A stretch of DNA of 64,000 nucleotides from Eledone cirrhosa. Taxonomy: Eukaryota. This document shows positions 685-63,611 of this stretch, piece by piece; position 1 is the first letter of the stretch; the number at the start of each line of letters is the position of its first letter. The DNA lies in assembly GCA_964016885.1 (NCBI GenBank), contig OZ024743.1:329220001-329284000 (forward strand), given 5' to 3'. A program made the translations under genes and the position numbers. The notes below the pieces were generated by a model. It saw only the letters and a program-made list of their open reading frames with translations. It made no database searches and was not told the origin of the DNA.

Positions 685-780
685 TTGTTTCTACTTTAGG
701 CACAAGGCCAGCAATTACCCAGTGTATTACTGGTACTTTATTTTATCGACCCCGTAAGGATGAAAGGCAAAGTCAACCTT
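683..780 (-). mobile_element. tRNA-derived SINE, 3' part only
   Basis: Reverse complement of the 3' half of the SINE at 2543-2729. Confidence 0.75.
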
Positions 781-1072
781 AATGATTAGTGCTCTGAAAT
801 ACCGATGTAAACATGAAAGTATGTATGGTATATTTGGCAATATACCGTAAGTTTAGTTAAAAACATTTAGAAAACCATACGCTATCGGTTTTAAAGTAGT
901 GACTATGTCACTTACTTCTTTTCGGCGAAAGAAGGGACAGAAGCTAACAGTCTGTTTCACGTTGGTTGGCGTTCATCAGAGCCATTTACTCCCCTGCTTT
1001 CGCCGAAAATTATAAAAGCTGGATTCTTATAGAATTCCAGTAATAATCCGGAGCTGATTATACAGAGCGATA
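781..1072 (-). mobile_element. Hammerhead-carrying repeat, family B
   Basis: Closely similar to 11050-11305, 11326-11427 and (inverted) 11428-11613; contains the hammerhead at 942-983. Confidence 0.7.
942..983 (-). ncRNA. Minimal type-I hammerhead ribozyme (family B)
   Basis: Minus strand: ggct-CTGATGA-acgccaaccaacgt-GAAA-cagactgtt-agct; near-palindromic stem III ACAGACTGT. Confidence 0.75.
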
Positions 1073-1153
1073 CGATATATAATATGCTTGTCAAATGATC
1101 AACTAAATCACGCTAAGAATTTTTAGAAAAGCGGTAAGAATTTTTGTTACAAC

Positions 1154-1199
<46 letters not shown>

Positions 1200-1364
1200 A
1201 TTATTACTCCAAGATAAACTTACATAGGAATGCAAGAAAACTCATAAACTCGCCACCTACGGAAACCTCTTGTTGAGTCAAACAACGCCGTACGCTAAAT
1301 CTATCCACAATACGAAGTATTCACAACCTCTAACTGGATTACCTATAACGATATTTTGTTATCC

Positions 1365-1405
<41 letters not shown>

Positions 1406-1816
1406 GAGTTAAACAAGATTCAGTGATTACATCCCCTTTATCTTTCCCTTTCATTAATTATCTATCAGTTGCATTCTCAAGCCAAATACGTCTTCTTCTA
1501 TAGTCCTACAGTAGTATTTCACACTTTAAAATTTCTGTAACTGTTACATTAAGGCGATGTTTTTCTTACTCACAACCTCTCTATTGATTCTATTACGCTT
1601 TCCCATGTTCTCAATATTAGGGTATAAATATTGAGATTTTCTCATAAATTAATCACTACCTTGATTAAATCTTAACCATCTAACATGTCAGGGTATGTCA
1701 TGTATCATTTTATTTTATCTTATGAGGACGTACTGTTGAACCTGATTCAAATACCTCTAAAATATATATAATAAAATTTAATTGATCACAAGAATATCAA
1801 TTTTGTTAATATTTGA

Positions 1817-1883
<67 letters not shown>

Positions 1884-2014
1884 CAAGAAAGTAAGTGTTG
1901 GTAAAATGCAGTACTTCAGTATGCGGATAGGGAGCACTCAGCGACGATATAAGTTCCGGAGTTATAATAGTGACGAAACATAAGTCAATTGCATGAACTC
2001 ATAATCCTTTATTT

Positions 2015-2070
2015 ACTGCTATATATATTTCGATGATAGCCATTGAATGGCTATGACCTCATCAGGCAGT
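2015..2070 (-). ncRNA. Type-I hammerhead ribozyme (family C)
   Basis: Minus strand: actgc-CTGATGA-ggtcatagcc(attcaat)ggctatcatc-GAAA-tatatata-gcagt; stem I actgc/gcagt, stem III ATATATAT. Confidence 0.85.
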
Positions 2071-2149
2071 TAGTCAGTTCTTAGATATGCCAGCTCTGTG
2101 TTTATAGTGTTGATGGTATCAGAGCCTTGGGACATATATATATATATAT

Positions 2150-2209
2150 ATAGGAACGAGTAGGACCCCGACGGCTGAGCTCAGCCGTCGAGGTCCTACT
2201 CGTTCCTAT
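2150..2209. repeat. 60-bp near-perfect palindrome next to (TA)n
   Basis: ataggaacgagtaggaccccgacggctgag|ctcagccgtcgaggtcctactcgttcctat, one mismatch. Confidence 0.85.
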
Positions 2210-2286
2210 TACCCACTCTACTACCCTAAGTATTGAGTACTTTGGTGCGTTATGGTCCACCTGGTTCCTTACCACATTTCCTTCGT

Positions 2287-2374
<88 letters not shown>

Positions 2375-2381
2375 AGGGAGT

Positions 2382-2454
2382 GCTCTTGTATTGGCATGTA
2401 AACATGTAGATACAAGATCAAGAATGTTGAATGTTTACATGCCAATACAAGAGC
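2382..2454. repeat. Fold-back with 24-bp arms next to (TA)n
   Basis: gctcttgtattggcatgtaaacat ... atgtttacatgccaatacaagagc. Confidence 0.8.
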
Positions 2455-2542
2455 CAGAATGACGAGGTCATTCTACTGACAGCTTTAAAAGAGGCTGTTT
2501 GCATTATTGCAAACGAATCGAATATTATTATTAATATTCGAA

Positions 2543-2729
2543 GGGCGGTGAATTGGCAGTATTGGTAGAGGGTCGGACGCCATGCTTTGACGCATAGAAT
2601 TACGGCCCTTGCCATTCTGAGTTCAAATCCCGCCGAGGTTAACTTTGCCTTTCATCCTTATGGGGTCGATAAAATAAAGTACCAGTAATAAACTGGATAA
2701 TTGCTGGCCTTGTGCTAAGAGTAGAAACA
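2543..2729 (+). mobile_element. Full-length tRNA-derived SINE with 16-bp target-site duplication
   Basis: Box A-like tggcagtattggtag, box B gagttcaaatccc, conserved core gcctttcatcctta..gggtcgataaaataaagtaccag; attattaatattcgaa duplicated at 2527-2542 and 2730-2745. Confidence 0.85.
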
Positions 2730-2914
2730 ATTATTAATATTCGAAAATCTCAGATTACATTTATTGTACTCAGCCATGTAGAGCTATAAACTATTTGTTA
2801 GTGTTATATATATATATATATATATTTGTGGTAAGGTTGCTTGGATGCTTCCATAGGCCGTATGCCGGTTGAGCATTCTGTGCTCCTTCAGAGGATTTGC
2901 TTCGAAGTCGCTAG

Positions 2915-3010
2915 ACGTATCTGAGTAACTCGCGAATCCAGAGTCAGGTTCGATCACAAATAGAACACCTTGACCTTGAGCTGTTCGCCGGAGAAACAAT
3001 TGTAATACGT
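2915..3010 (+). ncRNA. Hammerhead-like motif with greatly extended stem II (family D), core mutated
   Basis: acgtat-CTGAGTA-~65 nt-GAAA-caattgta-atacgt; perfect stem I and palindromic stem III ACAATTGT; homologous to 11820-11915. Confidence 0.6.
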
Positions 3011-3056
3011 TAATAAATTGTGTTTCGATGCATCACTGATTCTTCGTTTTCCATAT

Positions 3057-3157
<101 letters not shown>

Positions 3158-3471
3158 CGCTGAAGTAATCTAAACAAGATAGAAACGTCAGTTGCTTACG
3201 CGTATTGACAGTAACAGTATTATTAAAAAAATATATTTGGATTACCTATTATTATTAGAGTTATCTCTCTTGATTTGTCAACATTTACTGTTCGAATTGC
3301 AAGGATAATAGGCGTTTTTTTCCATTCACGATATTACATACGTGACAGTTTACCATCTACGTGTTTGTGTGTGTATGTGTGTGTATGTGATATTTATTAT
3401 TAATAGTGACAGTTTACGTCTACGTTATTTCAAAGTTGCTTTAATTTAGTAAATATTGAATTGAGTCTATA

Positions 3472-3571
<100 letters not shown>

Positions 3572-3656
3572 AAAAGGTAAACAGAAATAACAACACAATC
3601 GGTACAGTATATGGAAAGGATATATTAGGTTAACGCTTGATATAGCAGGAAGAGGA

Positions 3657-3690
3657 TGTTAATGTTTCGGACGCGAGTCCTTCATCAGAA
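3657..3690 (-). ncRNA. Minimal hammerhead core (family E, PLE-type)
   Basis: Minus strand: tt-CTGATGA-aggac(tcgc)gtcc-GAAAC-attaac; stems I and III weak. Confidence 0.55.
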
Positions 3691-3885
3691 GAAAGAATGT
3701 GAAATAAGATCGATTGAGGGGACGGGAGGGTTTGAATTGGAAAAATGTCTTTAGATAAAAATAACAGGTCCATTCATGTTGACATCTCTTGCAAAACTGT
3801 TGGTGCTGGGGTTTTGTGTATGATTTATTTTTATATATGCAATATATATGTTGGCTGCAACTCGATTTCGAGTAATGATTGACAC

Positions 3886-4550
3886 TTAAGCATGACCAGC
3901 ACGAACGTGATGTTTTAGTCCTGCTAGGGACTTGCACACTCTTGCACAGATGTTGTAACAATGGAGTCCTCTCGCAGTAGGTTTTTGTTGAACATTGAAA
4001 TGACATTTCAGTCCACCAACCGAGACACACTCTTTTCCACACCCCACATAAGCAGAAATGCCATACAATGCACAGTTGTCCGTGTTCCCGTGTGCGTGTG
4101 TACGTGACTGCTAAAGCGCGTCTTACTTAGACATAACCGGCCACATTTATTACAGGTTAAATCAACCTATATGCCAAGATATTTAGACAAGCCAAACGCA
4201 AGGTCCTTACGAGCACACAGCTTGAGCTGTTCATGCTCAACACGGTTTCTTTCAAATTCTCCCTTCCCATTATGCACTGCCTTCCTCGGGAAAGTCAATC
4301 CAGAGCGAGGTTCTCCCAGTCATTCTCCGATATTTTCATCTTCCTCAGTCTACTTTTAATACAATACCTTTACCCCAATTTGATTCGAGTGCCGATCGTT
4401 TCGCTTCTACCAGCTCACCATACAGGAACTGCCTAGGAATGCAAGCATCGTCCATTCTCAGTACATGGCCACTCTATCTTAATCGATGTTGAAATATGAG
4501 AGACTCTAGATTGGTAGACCAACTGCGTTCGAGGATTTCAGTGTCGCTCA
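3886..4550 (-). pseudogene. Degenerate 3' fragment of an RTE LINE with C2H2-type fingers
   Basis: Minus-strand peptides RMDDACIPRQFLYGELV, CGKECVSVGGLKCH and CARVCKSLAGLKHH parallel the C-terminus of 18168-19484. Confidence 0.7.
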
Positions 4551-30462: not shown

Positions 30463-30791
30463 ATACCTTCCTGCCAGATTGTTGAACGTATATACTTACC
30501 TTATGCATATTAACGGCTCAATTTGCATATATATATATGTGCATGTATGTATATATATATACATACTACTGTACGTCTGTATACATATATGTATGTACGT
30601 ATACATACTTATATTTAAGTAACAGCCGTACTAAGAGTGGGAAATCAAATTTCGTTTCATTTTTTCCGTTTATCGTTTTCGGTGCACCCGGCCGATTAAC
30701 CCACTCGATATGCAAATTAGGCTGCTCAGCCGTTAATATGCATAAGGAAAGTATATACTTTCAGACATTCAATCATCTGGCAGGAAGGTAT

Positions 30792-30834
30792 ACGTTGCTG
30801 ACGATAGCTAATAAGCTTGAAACTAGTACAGCGT
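30792..30834 (+). ncRNA. Minimal type-I hammerhead ribozyme (family A2)
   Basis: acgttg-CTGACGA-tagctaataagctt-GAAA-ctagta-cagcgt. Confidence 0.82.
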
Positions 30835-31035
30835 TCCTTTGTCAGTGTTGAACAAACCAGTAACGATGGTTGCTGGACACTACGGCTTAATACGGAATGT
30901 TTGTTTACAAACACACCGAGCATTATAATAGATGTTCGGTGAATTCATACGTACATATATATATGTGTGCATGTATGTATATATATATACATACTACTGC
31001 ACGTCTGTATACATATATGTATGTACGTGTACATA

Positions 31036-52704: not shown

Positions 52705-53065
52705 TGTATTACGTATACATACTTATATTTAAGTAACAGCCGTACTAAGAGTGAGAAATGAAATTTTGTTTCATTTTTTCCGTTTATCGTTTTCGGTACC
52801 CCGGCCGATTAACTCACTATATATATGCTCAGTCGTTAATATGCATAAGGAAAGTTTATACTTTCAGACGTTCAACCATCTGGCAGGAAGGTATACGTTG
52901 CTGACGATAGCTAATAAGCTTGAAACTAGTACAGCGTTCCTTTGTCAGTGTTGAACAAATGAGCAACGATGGTTGCTAGACACTGTACGGCTTAATTCGG
53001 GATGTTTGTTTACAAACACACCGAGCATTATAATAAATGTTCGGTGAATCCATGCGTACATATAT
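52700..53065 (+). mobile_element. Family-A2 hammerhead unit, interrupted at 53065 and resuming at 56721-56805
   Basis: Matches 30585-30960; the continuation (30959-31040) is found after 56720. Confidence 0.8.
52895..52937 (+). ncRNA. Minimal type-I hammerhead ribozyme (family A2)
   Basis: Identical to 30792-30834. Confidence 0.82.
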
Positions 53066-53136
53066 ATAAAGTAGAGCCGCGCTGTACTGTCGTAAACAGA
53101 CGATGTTTACGACAGTACAGCGCGGCTCTACTTTAT
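53066..53136. repeat. Perfect hairpin with 33-bp arms and 5-nt loop
   Basis: ataaagtagagccgcgctgtactgtcgtaaaca-gacga-tgtttacgacagtacagcgcggctctactttat. Confidence 0.92.
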
Positions 53137-53851
53137 TTAACTGAGATAAAACTTATATGAGCATGAACAGTAGATCATTACGCATCTTTTGGCTTAAAAA
53201 TCTAGAAATTTGGTCCAGCGGGAAAAAGTTTATAAGCAAAGTTTGCTGATAAATCTTGTGTTCAAGTGAGTAGTAAGCGTGACGCTAGGGGAGGTAATCC
53301 AGAAATGACTAATTTTTTTCGGCGGAACTCTTGTGATTGTGATTACGTTAGTCAAATCGCCGAATCCCCTCCTCCTAATTGACTACGTCATTTCTGAACG
53401 GCCCTACTTGCGTCAGTGTGAAACGTTACTTCACTTTTCACTGCTAAAATGCTTTTTAAATACTTCGTTAAAAATTTATGTTTATTATCAAAGCTATTTT
53501 TTGTACCAATCTATCAATAGTTTGCGAAAATATAGGTAAACATGTGAGTTAAATTTTTTTTAATCGCATCGATCGCTTTGTCGCACCGACTGTGACACTG
53601 TCTGACTGTCTGTCTGACTGACACCTTTGTCGGACCGACACCTTTGTTCAAGCGGACAACTTTGTGTCACTGACACCTTTGTTCGTGCCGGCATCTCTGC
53701 GAAACACCGATGACAACAACCAGACCAAAATTTCACTTCATTCTTCATTCTTCTTCAAGACCGATCGCCGACCGATCGTATCGGTTGCTCTTCATATACC
53801 AGGTATTCAACAGATAGTTTGCACTTCTAGTATTATTAACAGTCGTGCGAT

Positions 53852-54016
53852 TTTTTGTACCGATAGGTGCGAATAGTGCGCTATATTTTTGTACCGATAG
53901 GTGCGAATAGTGCGCTATATTTTTGTACCGATAGGTGCGAATAGTGCGCTATATTTTTGTACCGATAGGTGCGAATAGTGCGATAGGTGCGAATAGTGCG
54001 ATAGGTGCGAATAGTG
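53852..54016. repeat. 34-bp tandem repeat, four copies, plus two 18-bp subunits
   Basis: tttttgtaccgataggtgcgaatagtgcgctata. Confidence 0.9.
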
Positions 54017-54063
54017 TACAATATTTTCTGAGATTTGCATCCACTAATTTCGCTTAATTAAAA

Positions 54064-54860
54064 ATGATGTTTCGCGGCTTTTTGATCGGCTTATTCATTT
54101 TTTCCATGGCACGGAAATGGAGTATTTCCATTTCGAATCAAAACTTTTCCCTAAAATCGGGCAATTGGACTGATCAAATTCACATTCATGCCAGTTTTTA
54201 CAAATCCATAATTAGAAATGTGGCGAAATCGAATGACCAGAAGGTATAAAAATATTAATTCAAATGTATTTACTTATCATACCAACAAAAATACTTAGAT
54301 ATGTTGTATACCTGGGGGCCCGTCAGGGCCAGGTAATGTTAATCGCCAACATTGTTATCTGTTGTCCTTTTGTGAAAGTATTGGTGGTTCATGTCGGCTC
54401 TAATGATCTGAATCCTCGTCGCACCGTTGGCACTACAAAGCTGTGCAAAGTAATACAATAATTTTTTCCCAAGTATTTTTTATTAATCATTTATTTGTAA
54501 ATTAAGGACAAAGTGCCCATTCGAGGCACAAAACCGGAAAAACAGGGGAAGAGTCTCTTTGCAAGGCTACAGAAAATAGCAGAAAAGCACCACTGTAAAC
54601 CCATTTTCTACAGTGGTGTCATTCCACGTCCACAAAGTGTAATTGAAAATAAAAATGACTTGGGCAAGAGAAATTCTCGTTTGGAAAAGTTTAATTACTG
54701 CATGAAAGAAATGATTCAAAAATTGAACTTTCCCAATCTTCACAACATTGAAAATGGGTCAAAATTTGACAAATCTGACTTCAAACCAGATATGATTCAT
54801 TTGAACAATGTTGGAAATCTTAAATTGACACAAATTTTTGCCAATGTTTTTGCCACCTGA
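54064..54860 (+). pseudogene. Three-exon SGNH/GDSL hydrolase-like gene (exons ~54064-54243, 54299-54449, 54507-54860) with an apparent +1 frameshift in the G run near 54314
   Basis: Block I-like xxSIIRNV, block II CCIPG(A), block III VVHVGSND, SGVIPR, block V DMIHLN..G; GT-AG introns of 55 and 57 nt, both phase 0; AATAAA at 54898. Confidence 0.72.
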
Positions 54861-55040
54861 TCCTTGTCCTATGGCTGACTGAATAATTTTGTGACTTAAT
54901 AAAATGTCATCATACTAGTAATGCACAATGATCATTTTTAAATTTAAATTTTATTAAATAGTTGTTGCTTGCATTGCCTTAAAATAGTAACAAGAATGTA
55001 AACATACTTTTTAAAAATACATCATTATCAGTCAAATCAG

Positions 55041-55401
55041 TCAAATGTCACTAAAAGCCAGGTGGTCTATAACAACTTCTATAAGATTAGTTACATGCTC
55101 ACACATTGGATCACCTCTCATCAATGGCATTGGATGTCTGAGATAATCGTGGAGATAACTGATGAAGTCACAAATGAAGTGATGGTCTTCCAGTGTGAAC
55201 AACTCCCTATAGCCATTGATATATGTGATGGCTTCCGATTCATAGGTGCATTTTATGAGGAATTCCATGCATCCGATTTTCAGTGATTCAATGGGCATTT
55301 TATCAGAGATGATAAGGTATTTGACCACGTTTTGCTTTGTAAGTAAATTGGAGAGAATCACTGCAGTCAAAGTCATTTCTTTGCATGGGTGTTTGTCCAT
55401 T
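55041..55401 (-). CDS. Probable terminal exon of a BTB C-terminal/BACK-like helical protein
   Basis: SNLLTKQNVVKYLIISDKMPIESLKIGCMEFL resembles the BTB-BACK junction pattern; preceded on minus by tttttag; AATAAA on minus at ~54950. Confidence 0.45.
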
Positions 55402-55673
55402 CTAAAAAGTTAAAATGATAAAGTATTACTACTATATAACTTACATCTATTGTTGTAAAATCATTGAAATGCACAAGTTTCACCAATTCACTATTATGCA
55501 CTAATCATCTCAAATGCATTCATGATTTACTAGCTTTGTCATTAAGCCAGTTGCCTCAACTAGATTGCAATTATACTCAAAAGAACTTTAAAATGTCAAT
55601 CACTTGTCAGTAATTCACTATGATCATTTAATTATTAGATAGTTGTTGCTTGCATTGCCTTAAAAAATAGTAG

Positions 55674-56720
55674 ACCAGATAGAAAAATGCGTACAACAAA
55701 AAAAAGTAATATTGGACAAGAAACTAAAATACAGGACAAGTAACTAAAATAAAACTTTAAAAGAATAGGACAAGAAACTAAGATAAACCTTTAAAAGAAT
55801 AGGATAAGAAACTAAGATAAAACTTTAAAGAATTGGACAAGAAATAAAAAATTTTACAATAATATTAGTGGCAAAATTTTTTTATTTTTTCCTGTGCTAT
55901 GTATGCCCCAGTATCTTCTTGATTAGTGCATAATAATTGTCATGCTCTCATTGTGCGTTGCCCCTGAGCGGTTGGTTCTGGTTGGGGTTGGTTGGCTGAG
56001 AGGTTCTGCTCCGTCAGAATGACCATTGCAAGAAGAATTTGCCGATGCAGCTGCAGGTCTCCTCCAAGAATGCACTTCTGGTCCCGCAACACCAGACGAA
56101 GATGGAGAAGACGACCGGGACAAGATGTCGACTCTGACCACCGACTACGGCACCTCCCTCAACCACCGGTCCTCCCTCCCTCTGTCCCGTCATCCCTCCA
56201 GTCCTCCTGCTCCCCCTTCCTGTACCAGAAAGCTGTGGCACGCATTCATCTGGACTGCCGGACTTGAACTCAAGGACAAGATGCAAGGAGAAGAAGGACG
56301 AGTTGGTCAAGATCAAGGATGAGCGGGACGACAAGACCGTCCGCTGCTGCTCAAGATCTGTGATCATGGGTCCATTCACATTATGCATGACACATGAGGC
56401 GTGTCGCCGAATGATGAAATAGGGGTATGGTTATGGCCCAATTGGTGTTCAAACCAGGATCAAATGATCCCCCGGTCTGACGACGACCTCTGAATATGGA
56501 ACCCAGAGCCTATGAATGTGGAACTCGATTTTTTACCAATAAAATTTTGCCACTAATATTATTGTAAAATTTTTTATTTCTTGTCCAATTCTTTAAAGTT
56601 TTATCTTAGTTTCTTGTCCTATTCTTTTAAAGTTTTATTTTAGTTTCTTGTCCTGTATTTTTAAAGGTTTATATTCCAACAATATTACTTTTTTTTGCTG
56701 TACGCATTTTTCTATCTGGT
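55674..56720. repeat. ~200-bp inverted repeats with internal subrepeats enclosing a GC-richer ~660-bp core
   Basis: 55674-55880 (accagatagaaaaatgcgtaca...ggcaaaatttt) against 56541-56720. Confidence 0.88.
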
Positions 56721-56801
56721 ATATATATGTGTGCATGTATGTATATATATATACATACTACTGTACGTCTGTATACATATATGTATGAACGTATACATAC
56801 T

Positions 56802-59204: not shown

Positions 59205-62200
59205 GACTATTGAAAATAGTCCAGGTGTGGTAAGGTGGTAGAATTAATAAATATAGCCCAGGTGTGGTAGGTCTGAGAATTATTGAACATAGATCAGGTG
59301 TGGTAAAGTCTGAAAATTATTGAAGGTAGACCGGGTGTGGGAGAATTATTAATGACAGCCCAGGTATTTTTAATTGGGGAGAATTTTCAAAGAAATCCCG
59401 GATGTGGTAAAGTGGGAGAATCATTGAAGATAGTCCAGGTGTGGTAAGGTGGGAGAATTATTGAAGGTAGACCAGGTGTGGTAAGGTGGTAGAATTACTG
59501 AAGGTAGTCCAGGTGTGGTAAGGTGGGAGAATTACTGAAGGTAGACCAGGTGTGGTAAGGTGGGAGAATTACTGAAGGTGGACCAGGTGTGGTAAGGTGG
59601 GAGAATTATTGAAGGTAGACCAGGTGTGGTAAGGTGGGAGAATTACTGAAGGTAGACCAGGTGTGGTAAGGTGGGAGAATTACTGAAGGTGGACCAGGTG
59701 TGGTAAGGTGGGAGAATTATTGAAGGTAGACCAGGTGTGGTAAGGTGGGAGAAATACTGAAGGTAGTCCAGGTGTGGTAAGGTGGGAGAATTACTGAAGG
59801 TAGTCCAGGTGTGGTAAGGTGGGAGAATTACTGAAGATAGTCCAGGTGTGGTAAGGTGGGAGAATTACTGAAGGTAGTCCAGGTGTGGTAAGGTGGGAGA
59901 ATTACTGAAGGTAGTCCAGGTGTGGTAAGGTGGGAGAATTACTGAAGGTAGTCCAGGTGTGGTAAGGTGGGAGAATTACTGAAGGTAGTCCAGGTGTGGT
60001 AAGGTGGGAGAATTACTGAAGATAGTCCAGGTGTGGTAAGGTGGGAGAATTACTGAAGGTAGTCCAGGTGTGGTAAGGTGGGAGAATTACTGAAGGTAGT
60101 CCAGGTGTGGTAAGGTGGGAGAATTACTGAAGGTAGTCCAGGTGTGGTAACGTGGGAGAATTACTGAAGATAGTCCAGGTGTGGTAAGGTGGGAGAATTA
60201 CTGAAGGTAGTCCAGGTGTGGTTAAGTGGGAGAATTACTGAAGATAGTCCAGGTGTGGTAAGGTGGGAGAATTACTGAAGGTAGACCAGGTGTGGTAAGG
60301 TGGGAGAATTACTGAAGATAGTCCAGGTGTGGTAAGGTGGGAGAATTACTGAAGGTAGACCAGGTGTGGTAAGGTGGGAGAATTACTGAAGGTAGACCAG
60401 GTGTGGTAAGGTGGGAGAATTACTGAAGGTAGTCCAGGTGTGGTAAGGTGGGAGAATTACTGAAGGTAGACCAGGTGTGGTAAGGTGGGAGAATTACTGA
60501 AGGTGGACCAGGTGTGGTTAAGGGGGAGAATTACTGAAGGTAGTCCAGGTGTGGTTAAGTGGGAGAATTATTGAAGATAGTCCAGGTGTGGTAAGGTGGT
60601 AGAATTACTGAAGGTAGTCCAGGTGTGGTAAGGGGGGAGAATTACCGAAGGTAGTCCAGGTGTGGTAAGGTGGGAGAATTACTGAAGGTAGTCCAGGTGT
60701 GGTAAGGTGGGAGAATTATTGAAGATAGTCCAGGTGTGGTAAGGTGGGAGAATTACTGAAGGTAGACCAGGTGTGGTAAGGTGGGAGAATTACTGAAGGT
60801 AGACCAGGTGTGGTAAGGTGGGAGAATTACTGAAGGTAGTCCAGGTGTGGTAAGGTGGGAGAATTACTGAAGGTAGACCAGGTGTGGTAAGGTGGGAGAA
60901 TTACTGAAGGTAGTCCAGGTATGGTTAAGTGGGAGAATTACTGAAGGTAGACCAGGTGTGGTTAAGTGGGAGAATTATTGAAGATAGTCCAGGTGTGGTA
61001 AGGTGGGAGAATTACTGAAGGTAGACCAGGTGTGGTAAGGTGGGAGAATTACTGAAGGTAGTCCAGGTGTGGTAAGGTGGGAGAATTACTGAAGGTAGTC
61101 CAGGTGTGGTAAGGTGGGAGAATTACTGAAGGTAGACCAGGTGTGGTAAGGTGGGAGAATTACTGAAGGTAGTCCAGGTGTGGTTAAGTGGGAGAATTAC
61201 TGAAGGTAGACCAGGTGTGGTAAGGTGGGAGAATTACTGAAGGTAGTCCAGGTGTGGTTAAGTGGGAGAATTACTGAAGGTAGTCCAGGTGTGTTAAGGT
61301 GGGAGAATTACTGAAGGTAGACCAGGTGTGGTAAGGTGGGAGAATTATTGAAGGTAGTCCAGGTGTGGTAAGGTGGGAGAATTAGTGAAGGTAGACCAGG
61401 TGTGGTAAGGTGGGAGAATTGCTGAAGGTAGTCCAGGTGTGGTAAGGTGGGAGAATTACTGAAGGTAGTCCAGGTGTGGTAAGGTGGGAGAATTACTGAA
61501 GGTAGTCCAGGTGTGGTAAGGTGGGAGAATTACTGAAGGTGGACCAGGTGTGGTAAGGTGGGAGAATTACTGAAGGCAGACCAGATGTGGTAAGGTGGGA
61601 GAATTACTGAAGGTAGTCCAGGTGTGGTAAGGTGGGAGAATTACTGAAGGTAGTCCAGGTGTGGTAAGGTGGGAGAATTACTGAAGGTGGACCGGGTGTG
61701 GTAAGGTGGGAGAATTACTGAAGGTAGACCAGGTGTGGTAAGGTGGGAGAATTACTGAAGGTAGTCCAGGTGTGGTTAAGGGGGAGAATTACTGAAGATG
61801 GACCAGGTGTGGTAAGGTGGGAGAATTACTGAAGGTGGACCAGGTGTGGTAAGGTGGGAGAATTACTGAAGGTAGACCAGGTGTGGTAAGGTGGGAGAAT
61901 TACTGAAGGTGGACCAGGTGTGGTAAGGTGGGAGAATTACTGAAGGTAGACCAGGTGTGGTAAGGTGGGAGAATTACTGAAGGTAGTCCAGGTGTGGTTA
62001 AGGGGGAGAATTACTGAAGATGGACCAGGTGTGGTAAGGTGGGAGAATTACTGAAGGTAGTCCAGGTGTGGTAAGGTGGGAGAATTACTGAAGGTAGTCC
62101 AGGTGTGGTAAGGTGGGAGAATTACTGAAGGTGGACCAGGTGTAGTAAGGTGGGAGAATTACTGAAGGTAGTCCAGGTGTGGTAACGTGGGAGAATTACT

Positions 62201-63410
62201 GAAGATAGTCCAGGTGTGGTAAGGTGGGAGAATTACTGAAGGTGGACCAGGTGTGGTAAGGTGGGAGAATTACTGAAGGTAGACCAGGTGTGGTAAGGTG
62301 GGAGAATTACTGAAGGTAGTCCAGGTGTGGTAAGGTGGGAGAATTACTGAAGGTAGACCAGGTGTGGTAAGGTGGGAGAATTACTGAAGGTAGTCCAGGT
62401 GTGGTTAAGTGGGAGAATTACTGAAGGTAGACCAGGTGTGGTTAAGTGGGAGAATTATTGAAGATAGTCCAGGTGTGGTAAGGTGGGAGAATTACTGAAG
62501 GTAGACCAGGTGTGGTAAGGTGGGAGAATTACTGAAGTTAGTCCAGGTGTGGTAAGGTGGGAGAATTACTGAAGGTAGTCCAGGTGTGGTAAGGTGGGAG
62601 AATTACTGAAGGTAGACCAGGTGTGGTAAGGTGGGAGAATTACTGAAGGTAGTCCAGGTGTGGTTAAGTGGGAGAATTACTGAAGGTAGTCCAGGTGTGG
62701 TAAGGTGGGAGAATTACTGAAGGTGGACCAGGTGTGGTTAAGGGGGAGAATTACTGAAGGTGGACCAGGTGTGGTAAGGCGGGAGAATTACTGAAGGTAG
62801 ACCAGGTGTGGTAAGGTGGGAGAATTACTGAAGTTAGTCCAGGACTGGTTAAGGGGGAGAATTACTGAAGGTAGACCAGGTGTGGTTAAGGGGGAGAATT
62901 ACTGAAGGTGGACCAGGTGTGGTAAGGTGGTAGAATTACTGAAGGTAGTCCAGGTGTGGTTAAGGGGGAGAATTACTGAAGATGGAACAGGTGTGGTAAG
63001 GTGGGAGAATTACTGAAGGTAGTCCAGGTGTGGTTAAGGGGGAGAATTACTGAAGGTGGACCAGGTGTGGTTAAGGGGGAGAATTACTGAAGATGGACCA
63101 GGTGTGGTAAGGTGGGAGAATTACTGAAGGTGGACCAGGTGTGGTTAAGGGGGAGAATTACTGAAGGTGGACCAGGTGTGGTTAAGGGGGAGAATTACTG
63201 AAGGTGGACCAGGTGTGGTTAAGGGGGAGAATTACTGAAGATGGACCAGGTGTGGTAAGGTGGGAGAATTACTGAAGGTGGACCAGGTGTGGTTACGGGG
63301 GAGAATTACTGAAGATGGACCAGGTGTGGTTAAGGGGGAGAATTACTGAAGGTGGACCAGGTGTGGTTAAGGGGGAGAATTACTGAAGATGGACCAGGTG
63401 TGGTTAAGGG
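59205..63410. repeat. 37-bp G-rich satellite, about 113 copies
   Basis: aggtgtggtaaggtgggagaattactgaaggtagtcc; period checked at 59881 and 59918. Confidence 0.97.
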
Positions 63411-63611
63411 GGGGGGGGTACACGACTTCAGAAAGACAGTGAGAATAGATTAGAGACAAACAGAAATTCAAAGTGAAGTTTGTAAGACAAAATGAAGAAT
63501 ATTAGTTTCTAATTTGTGAGACAATTGACAATTTGTGGCATTAATAGGGAGAAGATTGGACATTTCTACTATTCTGATAATATCAACAACAAGAATAACA
63601 ACAATAATGCC

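Follow-up and report, generated by a model that had tools for sequence, protein, structure and literature searches.

According to PMC11417382, Helitron2 (HLE2) elements carry short (11-18 nt) asymmetric terminal inverted repeats (ATIRs) and a DUF6570 domain, usually but not strictly insert between two T residues (T|T), and have a stem-loop at the 3' end in typical HLE2 or at the 5' end in the HLE2-reverse layout. The HLE2-reverse elements FoHeli3/4/5 of Fusarium oxysporum (PMC5148889; named in PMC11417382) are described as having a 5' hairpin and no short 3' hairpin, an asymmetric repeat whose 3' copy lies 20-40 bp from the end, a RepHel transposase (HUH Rep and PIF1 helicase) with DUF6570 and without endonuclease, and internally deleted non-autonomous forms. 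We analysed a stretch of 64,000 nucleotides of Eledone cirrhosa (assembly GCA_964016885.1, contig OZ024743.1, positions 329,220,001 to 329,284,000), hereafter the window, which contains an insert of ~3.65 kb at 53066..56719. This insert is very probably an internally deleted, enzyme-less, non-autonomous copy of a ~12.6-kb Helitron2 (HLE2) family that resembles FoHeli3/4/5 in all the features just listed for them. It differs from them, as described in PMC5148889, in its animal host, TC...CTRG ends, strict A|T target, fused UCH domain, predicted NADAR-SGNH cargo and a long inverted copy of its 3' terminus.

The insert splits an (AT)n run of a high-copy host repeat. An uninterrupted paralog of this repeat is located at ~30620-30990, with the region of the insertion point at ~30940-30990, in agreement with the original prediction, made from the sequence alone, that the segment is an insertion. 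As also predicted, no transposase, reverse transcriptase (RT) or recombinase, and hence no mobilising enzyme, is encoded inside it. Genome search with the insert retrieved 794 candidates, 36 of which were scored; all 36 match, mostly near full length and with 94-97% identity. Exact motif counts gave 317 5' ends and 812 3'-arm motifs, the latter occurring twice per copy, and zero in controls. The family is present in hundreds of copies in this genome and comprises several subfamilies, each defined by a different shared internal deletion. The suggested search for copies sharing both ends and for longer copies with an enzyme found both, and the enzyme is a Helitron2 RepHel.

One fetched 5' family end ran into a Helitron Rep frame, and family ends were found to flank Rep frames. 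In locus L115 both family ends are present, 12,628 bp apart. Rep matches in the genome number 24 at at least 95% identity, two at 85-86% and four loci at 64-69%; of these we examined 19 of the first 24 (family copies), both sister copies and all four distant loci. RepHel is encoded by parents L099, L101, L105, L109 and L111. Pfam domains scoring over cut-off in parents are Helitron_like_N (4e-23), DUF6570 (1.5e-12 to 1.9e-14), PIF1 (4e-26), UvrD_C_2 and UCH (ubiquitin protease; 8e-13), the last in the same frame as the helicase C-terminus. Neither an Exo_endo_phos (endonuclease) match nor an RT or GIY-YIG domain was found among 14 parent frames. The order of parts in parents is TC, 10-bp hairpin, 13-bp ATIR, RepHel-UCH frame, predicted NADAR-SGNH gene, convergent frame, inverted 3' end, ~0.65 kb of further sequence and CTGG. 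The window copy maps colinearly onto parents L111 (672-1768, then 10848 onward) and L099 (10571-13130) at 93-98% identity. Since position 1768 of L111 is joined directly to 10848, a single 9.1-kb deletion separates the window copy from its parents. The window copy and its borders consist of the following parts (no strand is given where none applies):

52719..53065: host repeat unit, left part, outside the element and up to and including the (AT)n target; uninterrupted paralog as above
53066..53136: copy-specific fold-back hairpin with 33-bp arms and 5-nt loop, seen in only one of the 28 copies that have the adjoining motif
53104..54063, plus strand: non-coding 5' region of the family, preceding the RepHel start, 93-95% identical to L111 672-1576
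53852..54016, plus strand: 34-bp tandem array (53852-53982) and 18-bp remnants, with variable copy number, a short distance 5' of the RepHel start
54064..54207, plus strand: RepHel transposase frame, codons 1-48; the long RepHel frames of L109 and L111 start with this sequence
54196..54220, plus strand: junction of the 9.1-kb internal deletion
54208..54860, plus strand: predicted NADAR-SGNH gene, 3' part, with exon pieces at 54208-54243, 54299-54449 and 54507-54860
55041..55409, minus strand: convergent 122-codon open frame
55675..55885, minus strand: inner arm, repeating the 3' terminus of the element in inverted orientation and containing 34-bp repeats
55886..56537: interior of the 3' module, rich in GC and without homology between families
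56538..56719, plus strand: terminal arm with 34-bp repeats, the 13-bp right ATIR (56677-56689) and terminal CTGG (56716-56719)
56720..56800: right part of the host repeat unit, its first base (T56720) being the target base and not, as originally given, the last base of the insert

The 34-bp array, the convergent exon and the inverted-repeat module at the right were thus all correctly recognised in the original prediction. Its three-exon SGNH gene stands in part. SGNH-like exons with GT-AG introns are indeed present, and "exon 1" is the RepHel N-terminus: the deletion took out RepHel, UCH and the NADAR exons and cut SGNH block I, so that the first 48 RepHel codons are joined in frame inside the esterase GDS motif. 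The exact junction sequence occurs 96 times in the genome, and the same joint is found in contigs of all four public runs inspected (one study).

The second rearrangement affects the left end. The 33-bp-arm hairpin is perfect (z -14.2; 0 of 200 shuffles fold as well) and consists of family nucleotides ~58-96, inverted, ahead of family nucleotides ~64 onward. Family nucleotides 1-57, and with them the 5' hairpin and left ATIR, are missing. The hairpin had been taken for the end of the element. Yet similarity of other copies to the window starts at 53104, and the adjoining motif, found in 27 of 29 other loci, is in these 27 copies preceded by normal family 5' sequence and in none by the hairpin. 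The odd look of the insert is therefore mostly the product of two rearrangements of a Helitron2; otherwise it is an ordinary damaged copy. Because its first 57 nucleotides are lost, the window copy is probably no longer mobilisable.

Ends of the family are A|TC, a 10-bp hairpin with GGTA loop and the 13-bp ATIR on the left and CTGG|T on the right; A|TC with the hairpin is seen in most of the 27 loci mentioned above. The base A precedes 61 of 62 5' ends and the base T follows 68 of 70 3' ends, counts that include some duplicate loci or sister-family copies. In 41 copies with both ends, overlap of the flanks is no larger than in shuffled pairs, pure (AT)n sites excepted, and it is zero in 14 of 21 non-(AT)n sites. 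Paralogous empty sites, the inspection of which had been proposed, align straight across the junction for six loci (L009, L011, L021, L022, L050 and L087). Shared A/T flanks, absence of excess overlap and empty sites together indicate insertion between A and T without target duplication. The element boundary is ambiguous by one base, a T-ending reading being equally possible. The outer ends were originally reported not to match each other; this holds for the window copy, which lost its left ATIR, whereas in intact copies they match by the 13-bp ATIR.

These data bear on the proposal that the insert is a non-autonomous cargo element moved by Penelope-like element (PLE) machinery. The element is multi-copy, non-autonomous and cargo-bearing, as proposed. 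PLEs keep introns, the window copy has a terminal inversion, and the host repeat (52719-53065 and 30620-30990), which is of very high copy number, had been called a hammerhead unit. Its hammerhead-like core letters are visible by eye only: the repeat unit has no hammerhead match in Rfam at gathering score or E<=10, and its minimum free energy fold is no better than those of shuffles. The hammerhead label, which is thus unconfirmed, is of no consequence for the element. Family copies L022, L036 and L037 occupy this same repeat, but most copies are located in other sequence, and the terminal inversion occurs in 1 of 28 copies. GDSL esterases are known from Terminons (PMC6431247), yet precise shared ends and A|T insertion without duplication do not fit PLE mobilisation, and RepHel-bearing parents with neither RT nor GIY-YIG among their 14 frames refute it. 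No RT/GIY-YIG partner, pseudo-long terminal repeats or variable truncation were found for the family. We thus regard PLE machinery as extremely improbable and retain the Helitron2 reading.

The other original suggestion, a fragment of a large DNA transposon fitting no recognised class, proved right as to the fragment; the class is a known one. RepHel in parents and the lack of target duplication are Helitron features, while DUF6570, ATIRs of 12-13 bp and a 5' terminal stem-loop with compensatory changes are those of HLE2. Judged by protein markers and ATIRs, the family would belong to Helitron2 with HLE2-reverse layout, and its HLE1-like target and terminal dinucleotides lead us to file it as a variant. 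Like canonical Helitron1 (HLE1), it has 5' TC, 3' CTRR and A|T insertion without target duplication; unlike HLE1, it has no short 3' hairpin (none is seen by eye) and possesses ATIRs, a 5' hairpin and DUF6570, so HLE1 is excluded. Helentrons are excluded as well, because RepHel bears no endonuclease and its helicase is followed by UCH. DUF6570 and UCH downstream of RepHel recall HELIANO HLE2 subgroups c/d, where UCH is listed among domains in separate frames (PMC11417382), in contrast to the in-frame UCH found here. The A|T target and 5' hairpin differ from the T|T target and 3' stem-loop of usual HLE2 (PMC11417382). Phytophthora Proto-Helentron is similar in its HLE2-type transposase, CTAG 3' end and 5' stem-loop, but is described as having TT at its 5' end and its left repeat 3.6 kb away from the stem-loop (PMC11417382), whereas here the 5' end is TC and the repeat adjoins the hairpin. 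A canonical Helitron1 family does occur in the same genome, separate and very abundant (2268 candidates), and has no end sequence in common with this family. Locus L031 (G000:C1:15.77 Mb), where a canonical Helitron1 RepHel (766-4400) is joined to the 3' half of our family, was rejected as parent, being a single chimera (1 of 40 scored candidates).

Several observations weigh against the Helitron2 assignment or its details. No unbroken RepHel frame is present among the 19 family copies examined, and thus no active source was found. The HLE2 label rests on the DUF6570 and UCH markers, and the A|T target and terminal CTRG depart from the T|T usual for HLE2 (PMC11417382). Cargo frames drift neutrally within the family (pN/pS 0.84-1.3), as is expected of dead copies. 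None of the contigs listed from the four public runs bridges the fold-back junction of the window copy, which may be an assembly artefact.

A sister family shares the 5' hairpin, apart from one compensatory pair, and its 3' end is CTAG|T; its copy L131 encodes RepHel of 1904 + 507 codons, split by one stop. In a third family (RepHel ~50-55% identical), the loop is unchanged, the 10-bp stem is another one, and the 3' end is again CTAG|T. Each of the three families has its own matching ATIR pair (13, 13 and 12 bp), which begins at nucleotide 25-26 and whose 3' copy stops 30 nt short of the 3' end. Between families, dN/dS of RepHel is 0.14-0.29. The unusual traits belong to the family and not to the rearranged window copy: HLE1-like TC...CTRG ends and A|T targets combined with an HLE2 transposase, the inverted 3' terminus and putative NADAR cargo. 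With such ends and target in an animal, annotation rules based on ends (T|T, 3' stem-loop) would miss or misclassify elements of this type.

Some further peculiarities were noted in these elements. Near the RepHel start, a leucine-rich stretch followed by GCVELNPGP and preceded by a hydrophobic leader resembles a 2A peptide (L111 ~1820-1850, L131 ~2720-2750). It occurs in this family and the sister family, is deleted from the window copy, and could not be found in the third family, which is degraded. Where GCVELNPGP has C, class A 2A peptides have D (PMC12338488). The stretch could split the leader from the transposase. In third-family locus L147, two 5' termini lie ~1.1 kb apart. Loci L149/L150 (G000:C12:9.075-9.085 Mb) contain a run of open frames beside a broken RepHel, apparently in tandem; the frames presumably resemble capsid and NS genes of parvoviruses/densoviruses. 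Non-autonomous copies sit inside autonomous-type copies of their own family in L076, L095, L097, L105 and L121. RepHel-bearing L099 has a 29-bp inverted family 3' terminus (2804-2832) in place of its left end.

The most distinctive part of the element is the 1.05-kb inverted-repeat module at 55675-56719, whose ~200-bp inverted arms contain the 34-bp repeats and which, as single-stranded DNA, is computed to fold as a long stem. An inverted copy of the 3' terminus is found ~1.05-1.15 kb inside the end in all three families, behind a conserved flank, and is thus kept across RepHel identities as low as ~50%, with module interiors unrelated between families. In the outer 45 nt, sister-family arms are identical to each other and 94.7% identical to those of this family, and family-specific changes are present in both arms. 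Within this family, arms from the same copy are 98.3% alike over these 45 nt, and so are arms from different copies. As same-copy arms are no more alike than different-copy arms, homogenisation occurred in the source lineage and not separately in each copy. A flipped orientation is seen in one of 66 family modules.

Two alternative explanations of the module were considered. Its inverted arms with internal repeats, the flipped module and the inverted 3' end at the start of L099 would suit an independent terminal-inverted-repeat transposon (a miniature inverted-repeat or foldback element) lying at the end of an unrelated insert. We consider this very unlikely and rejected it, since all 16 apparent stand-alone arm pairs continue into the element body, the inner-arm/body junction has 382 exact matches against 812 arm motifs, and in all three families the arm carries an ATIR matching the family's own 5' end. 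A more serious contender concerns the 3' module only: the inner arm may be left over, without function, from a single old self-insertion that took the opposite orientation, the arms having stayed alike through passive gene conversion. Composite Helitron2s have been described as arising through inverted self-insertion (PMC5148889, Fig. 8 legend), and the base expected of a target site precedes the inner arm. This is countered by the same position, span and upstream flank being conserved in three families while the interior is unrelated, and by retention of the module in most deletion subfamilies, though a few copies lose part of it. On balance we lean slightly towards a function of the inner arm over a preserved relic, the latter retaining a substantial chance. 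A frame in the module interior bears no sign of selection (pN/pS 1.0; 16 of 76 frameshifted). In the sister family, the interior (L131 11471-12085, joined L131/L132) contains a frame of ~200 codons whose Cys/His pattern recalls a degenerate PHD finger. The combination of a long inverted terminus, unrelated interiors, homogenised arms and a flipped copy offers a directly testable handle on how Helitron2 3' ends are defined and terminated.

Downstream of RepHel, parents carry a cargo gene of five predicted exons with GT-AG introns of 54-57 and ~215 nt. Its predicted spliced frame has 335 codons without stops in L111 and is frameshifted in L099 and L115. SGNH blocks I (GDS), II (G), III (GxND) and V (DxxH) can all be located in the L111 frame, with N in place of the block V D. 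In the window copy, a one-base frameshift is present near 54314 and GD of block I is absent; its SGNH exons match Pfam Lipase_GDSL_3 below cut-off (E 0.0044) and Atlas GDSL clusters with scores of 0.90-0.92. The first two exons of parents match NADAR (PF08719) in order and weakly (profile 4-67, E 0.0022; 82-115, E 0.067). The third exon we take, by eye, to fit NADAR as well. Genome-wide, PF08719 has two matches at E<=0.01 (5.7e-4 and 1.9e-3), both in this family, at 30.7 bits under a cut-off of 35.1. Five near-complete copies of NADAR exon A exist in the genome; no diverged or host NADAR gene was found, a search that exon-split genes can escape. Protein searches gave 0 relatives at E<=0.001 for the last SGNH exon and none for NADAR exon A and the UCH region, all short or divergent queries, and sequence searches of PDB were empty. 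The four public runs yielded unspliced contigs only. The predicted NADAR-SGNH gene is absent from the sister and third families, so the lineage does not need it to transpose.

Helitrons with SGNH cargo have been published before. By its description in PMC4021074, texim of fish Helitrons is likewise an intron-containing SGNH hydrolase gene travelling with a Helitron; it lies on the 5' side of the Helitron frame and comprises as many as 15 exons, whereas the gene described here lies 3' of RepHel, with five predicted coding exons and a putative N-terminal NADAR. YbiA-type NADAR is reported on transposons in Ectocarpus Gypsy Pol and oyster Tx1 ORF1 (PMC12477816). Those carriers are retroelements, in contrast to the putative NADAR, predicted to be spliced and fused to SGNH, on a DNA rolling-circle element here. 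Neither NADAR on a Helitron nor a Helitron whose inverted 3' terminus is conserved turned up in the literature searched, with Repbase, Dfam, the original Helitron2 paper and HELIANO Table S11 outside its scope and possibly holding such elements. As NADAR cargo was reported there only for retroelements, our finding hints that ADP-ribosylation may matter to DNA transposons.

Taken together, one 9.1-kb deletion of a ~12.6-kb parent produced a 3.6-kb subfamily keeping both ends. Its sequences show that this subfamily reached about a hundred copies or more, each inserted between A and T without target duplication; its spread was likely brought about by RepHel of its own family supplied in trans. 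Rolling-circle/strand-transfer chemistry would be expected, given the HUH Rep and PIF1 domains and what is established for Helitrons (PMC6431247, PMC5148889). The window copy would have lost its first 57 nucleotides by fold-back, at or after insertion. On a single-stranded intermediate, the 3' module would fold into a ~200-bp stem, and arm homogenisation and occasional flipping likely follow from such arm pairing. A bolder claim may be put forward tentatively, as its parts jointly are rather unlikely to be all correct: the family would represent an undescribed Helitron2 lineage with A|TC...CTRG|T ends, whose ~1.1-kb fold-back 3' module is required and terminates or re-primes replication by pairing on the single-stranded intermediate, like parvovirus flip-flop ends, and whose NADAR-SGNH product serves as counter-defence, stripping ADP-ribose from element DNA or proteins.

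The convergent 122-codon frame, open in 42 of 50 copies (pN/pS 0.84), had been called BTB/BACK-like. It is weakly BACK-like by eye only; searches of Pfam, PDB and proteins gave no BTB/BACK match and the best Atlas score is 0.82, and this name is not confirmed. The frame is bracketed by a ~90-bp direct repeat of 76% identity (54900-54989 and 55589-55672), the right copy of which is the conserved flank of the inner arm. Outside the element, the window contains a 37-bp satellite array at 59217-63413 with 113.6 copies and 92% matches.

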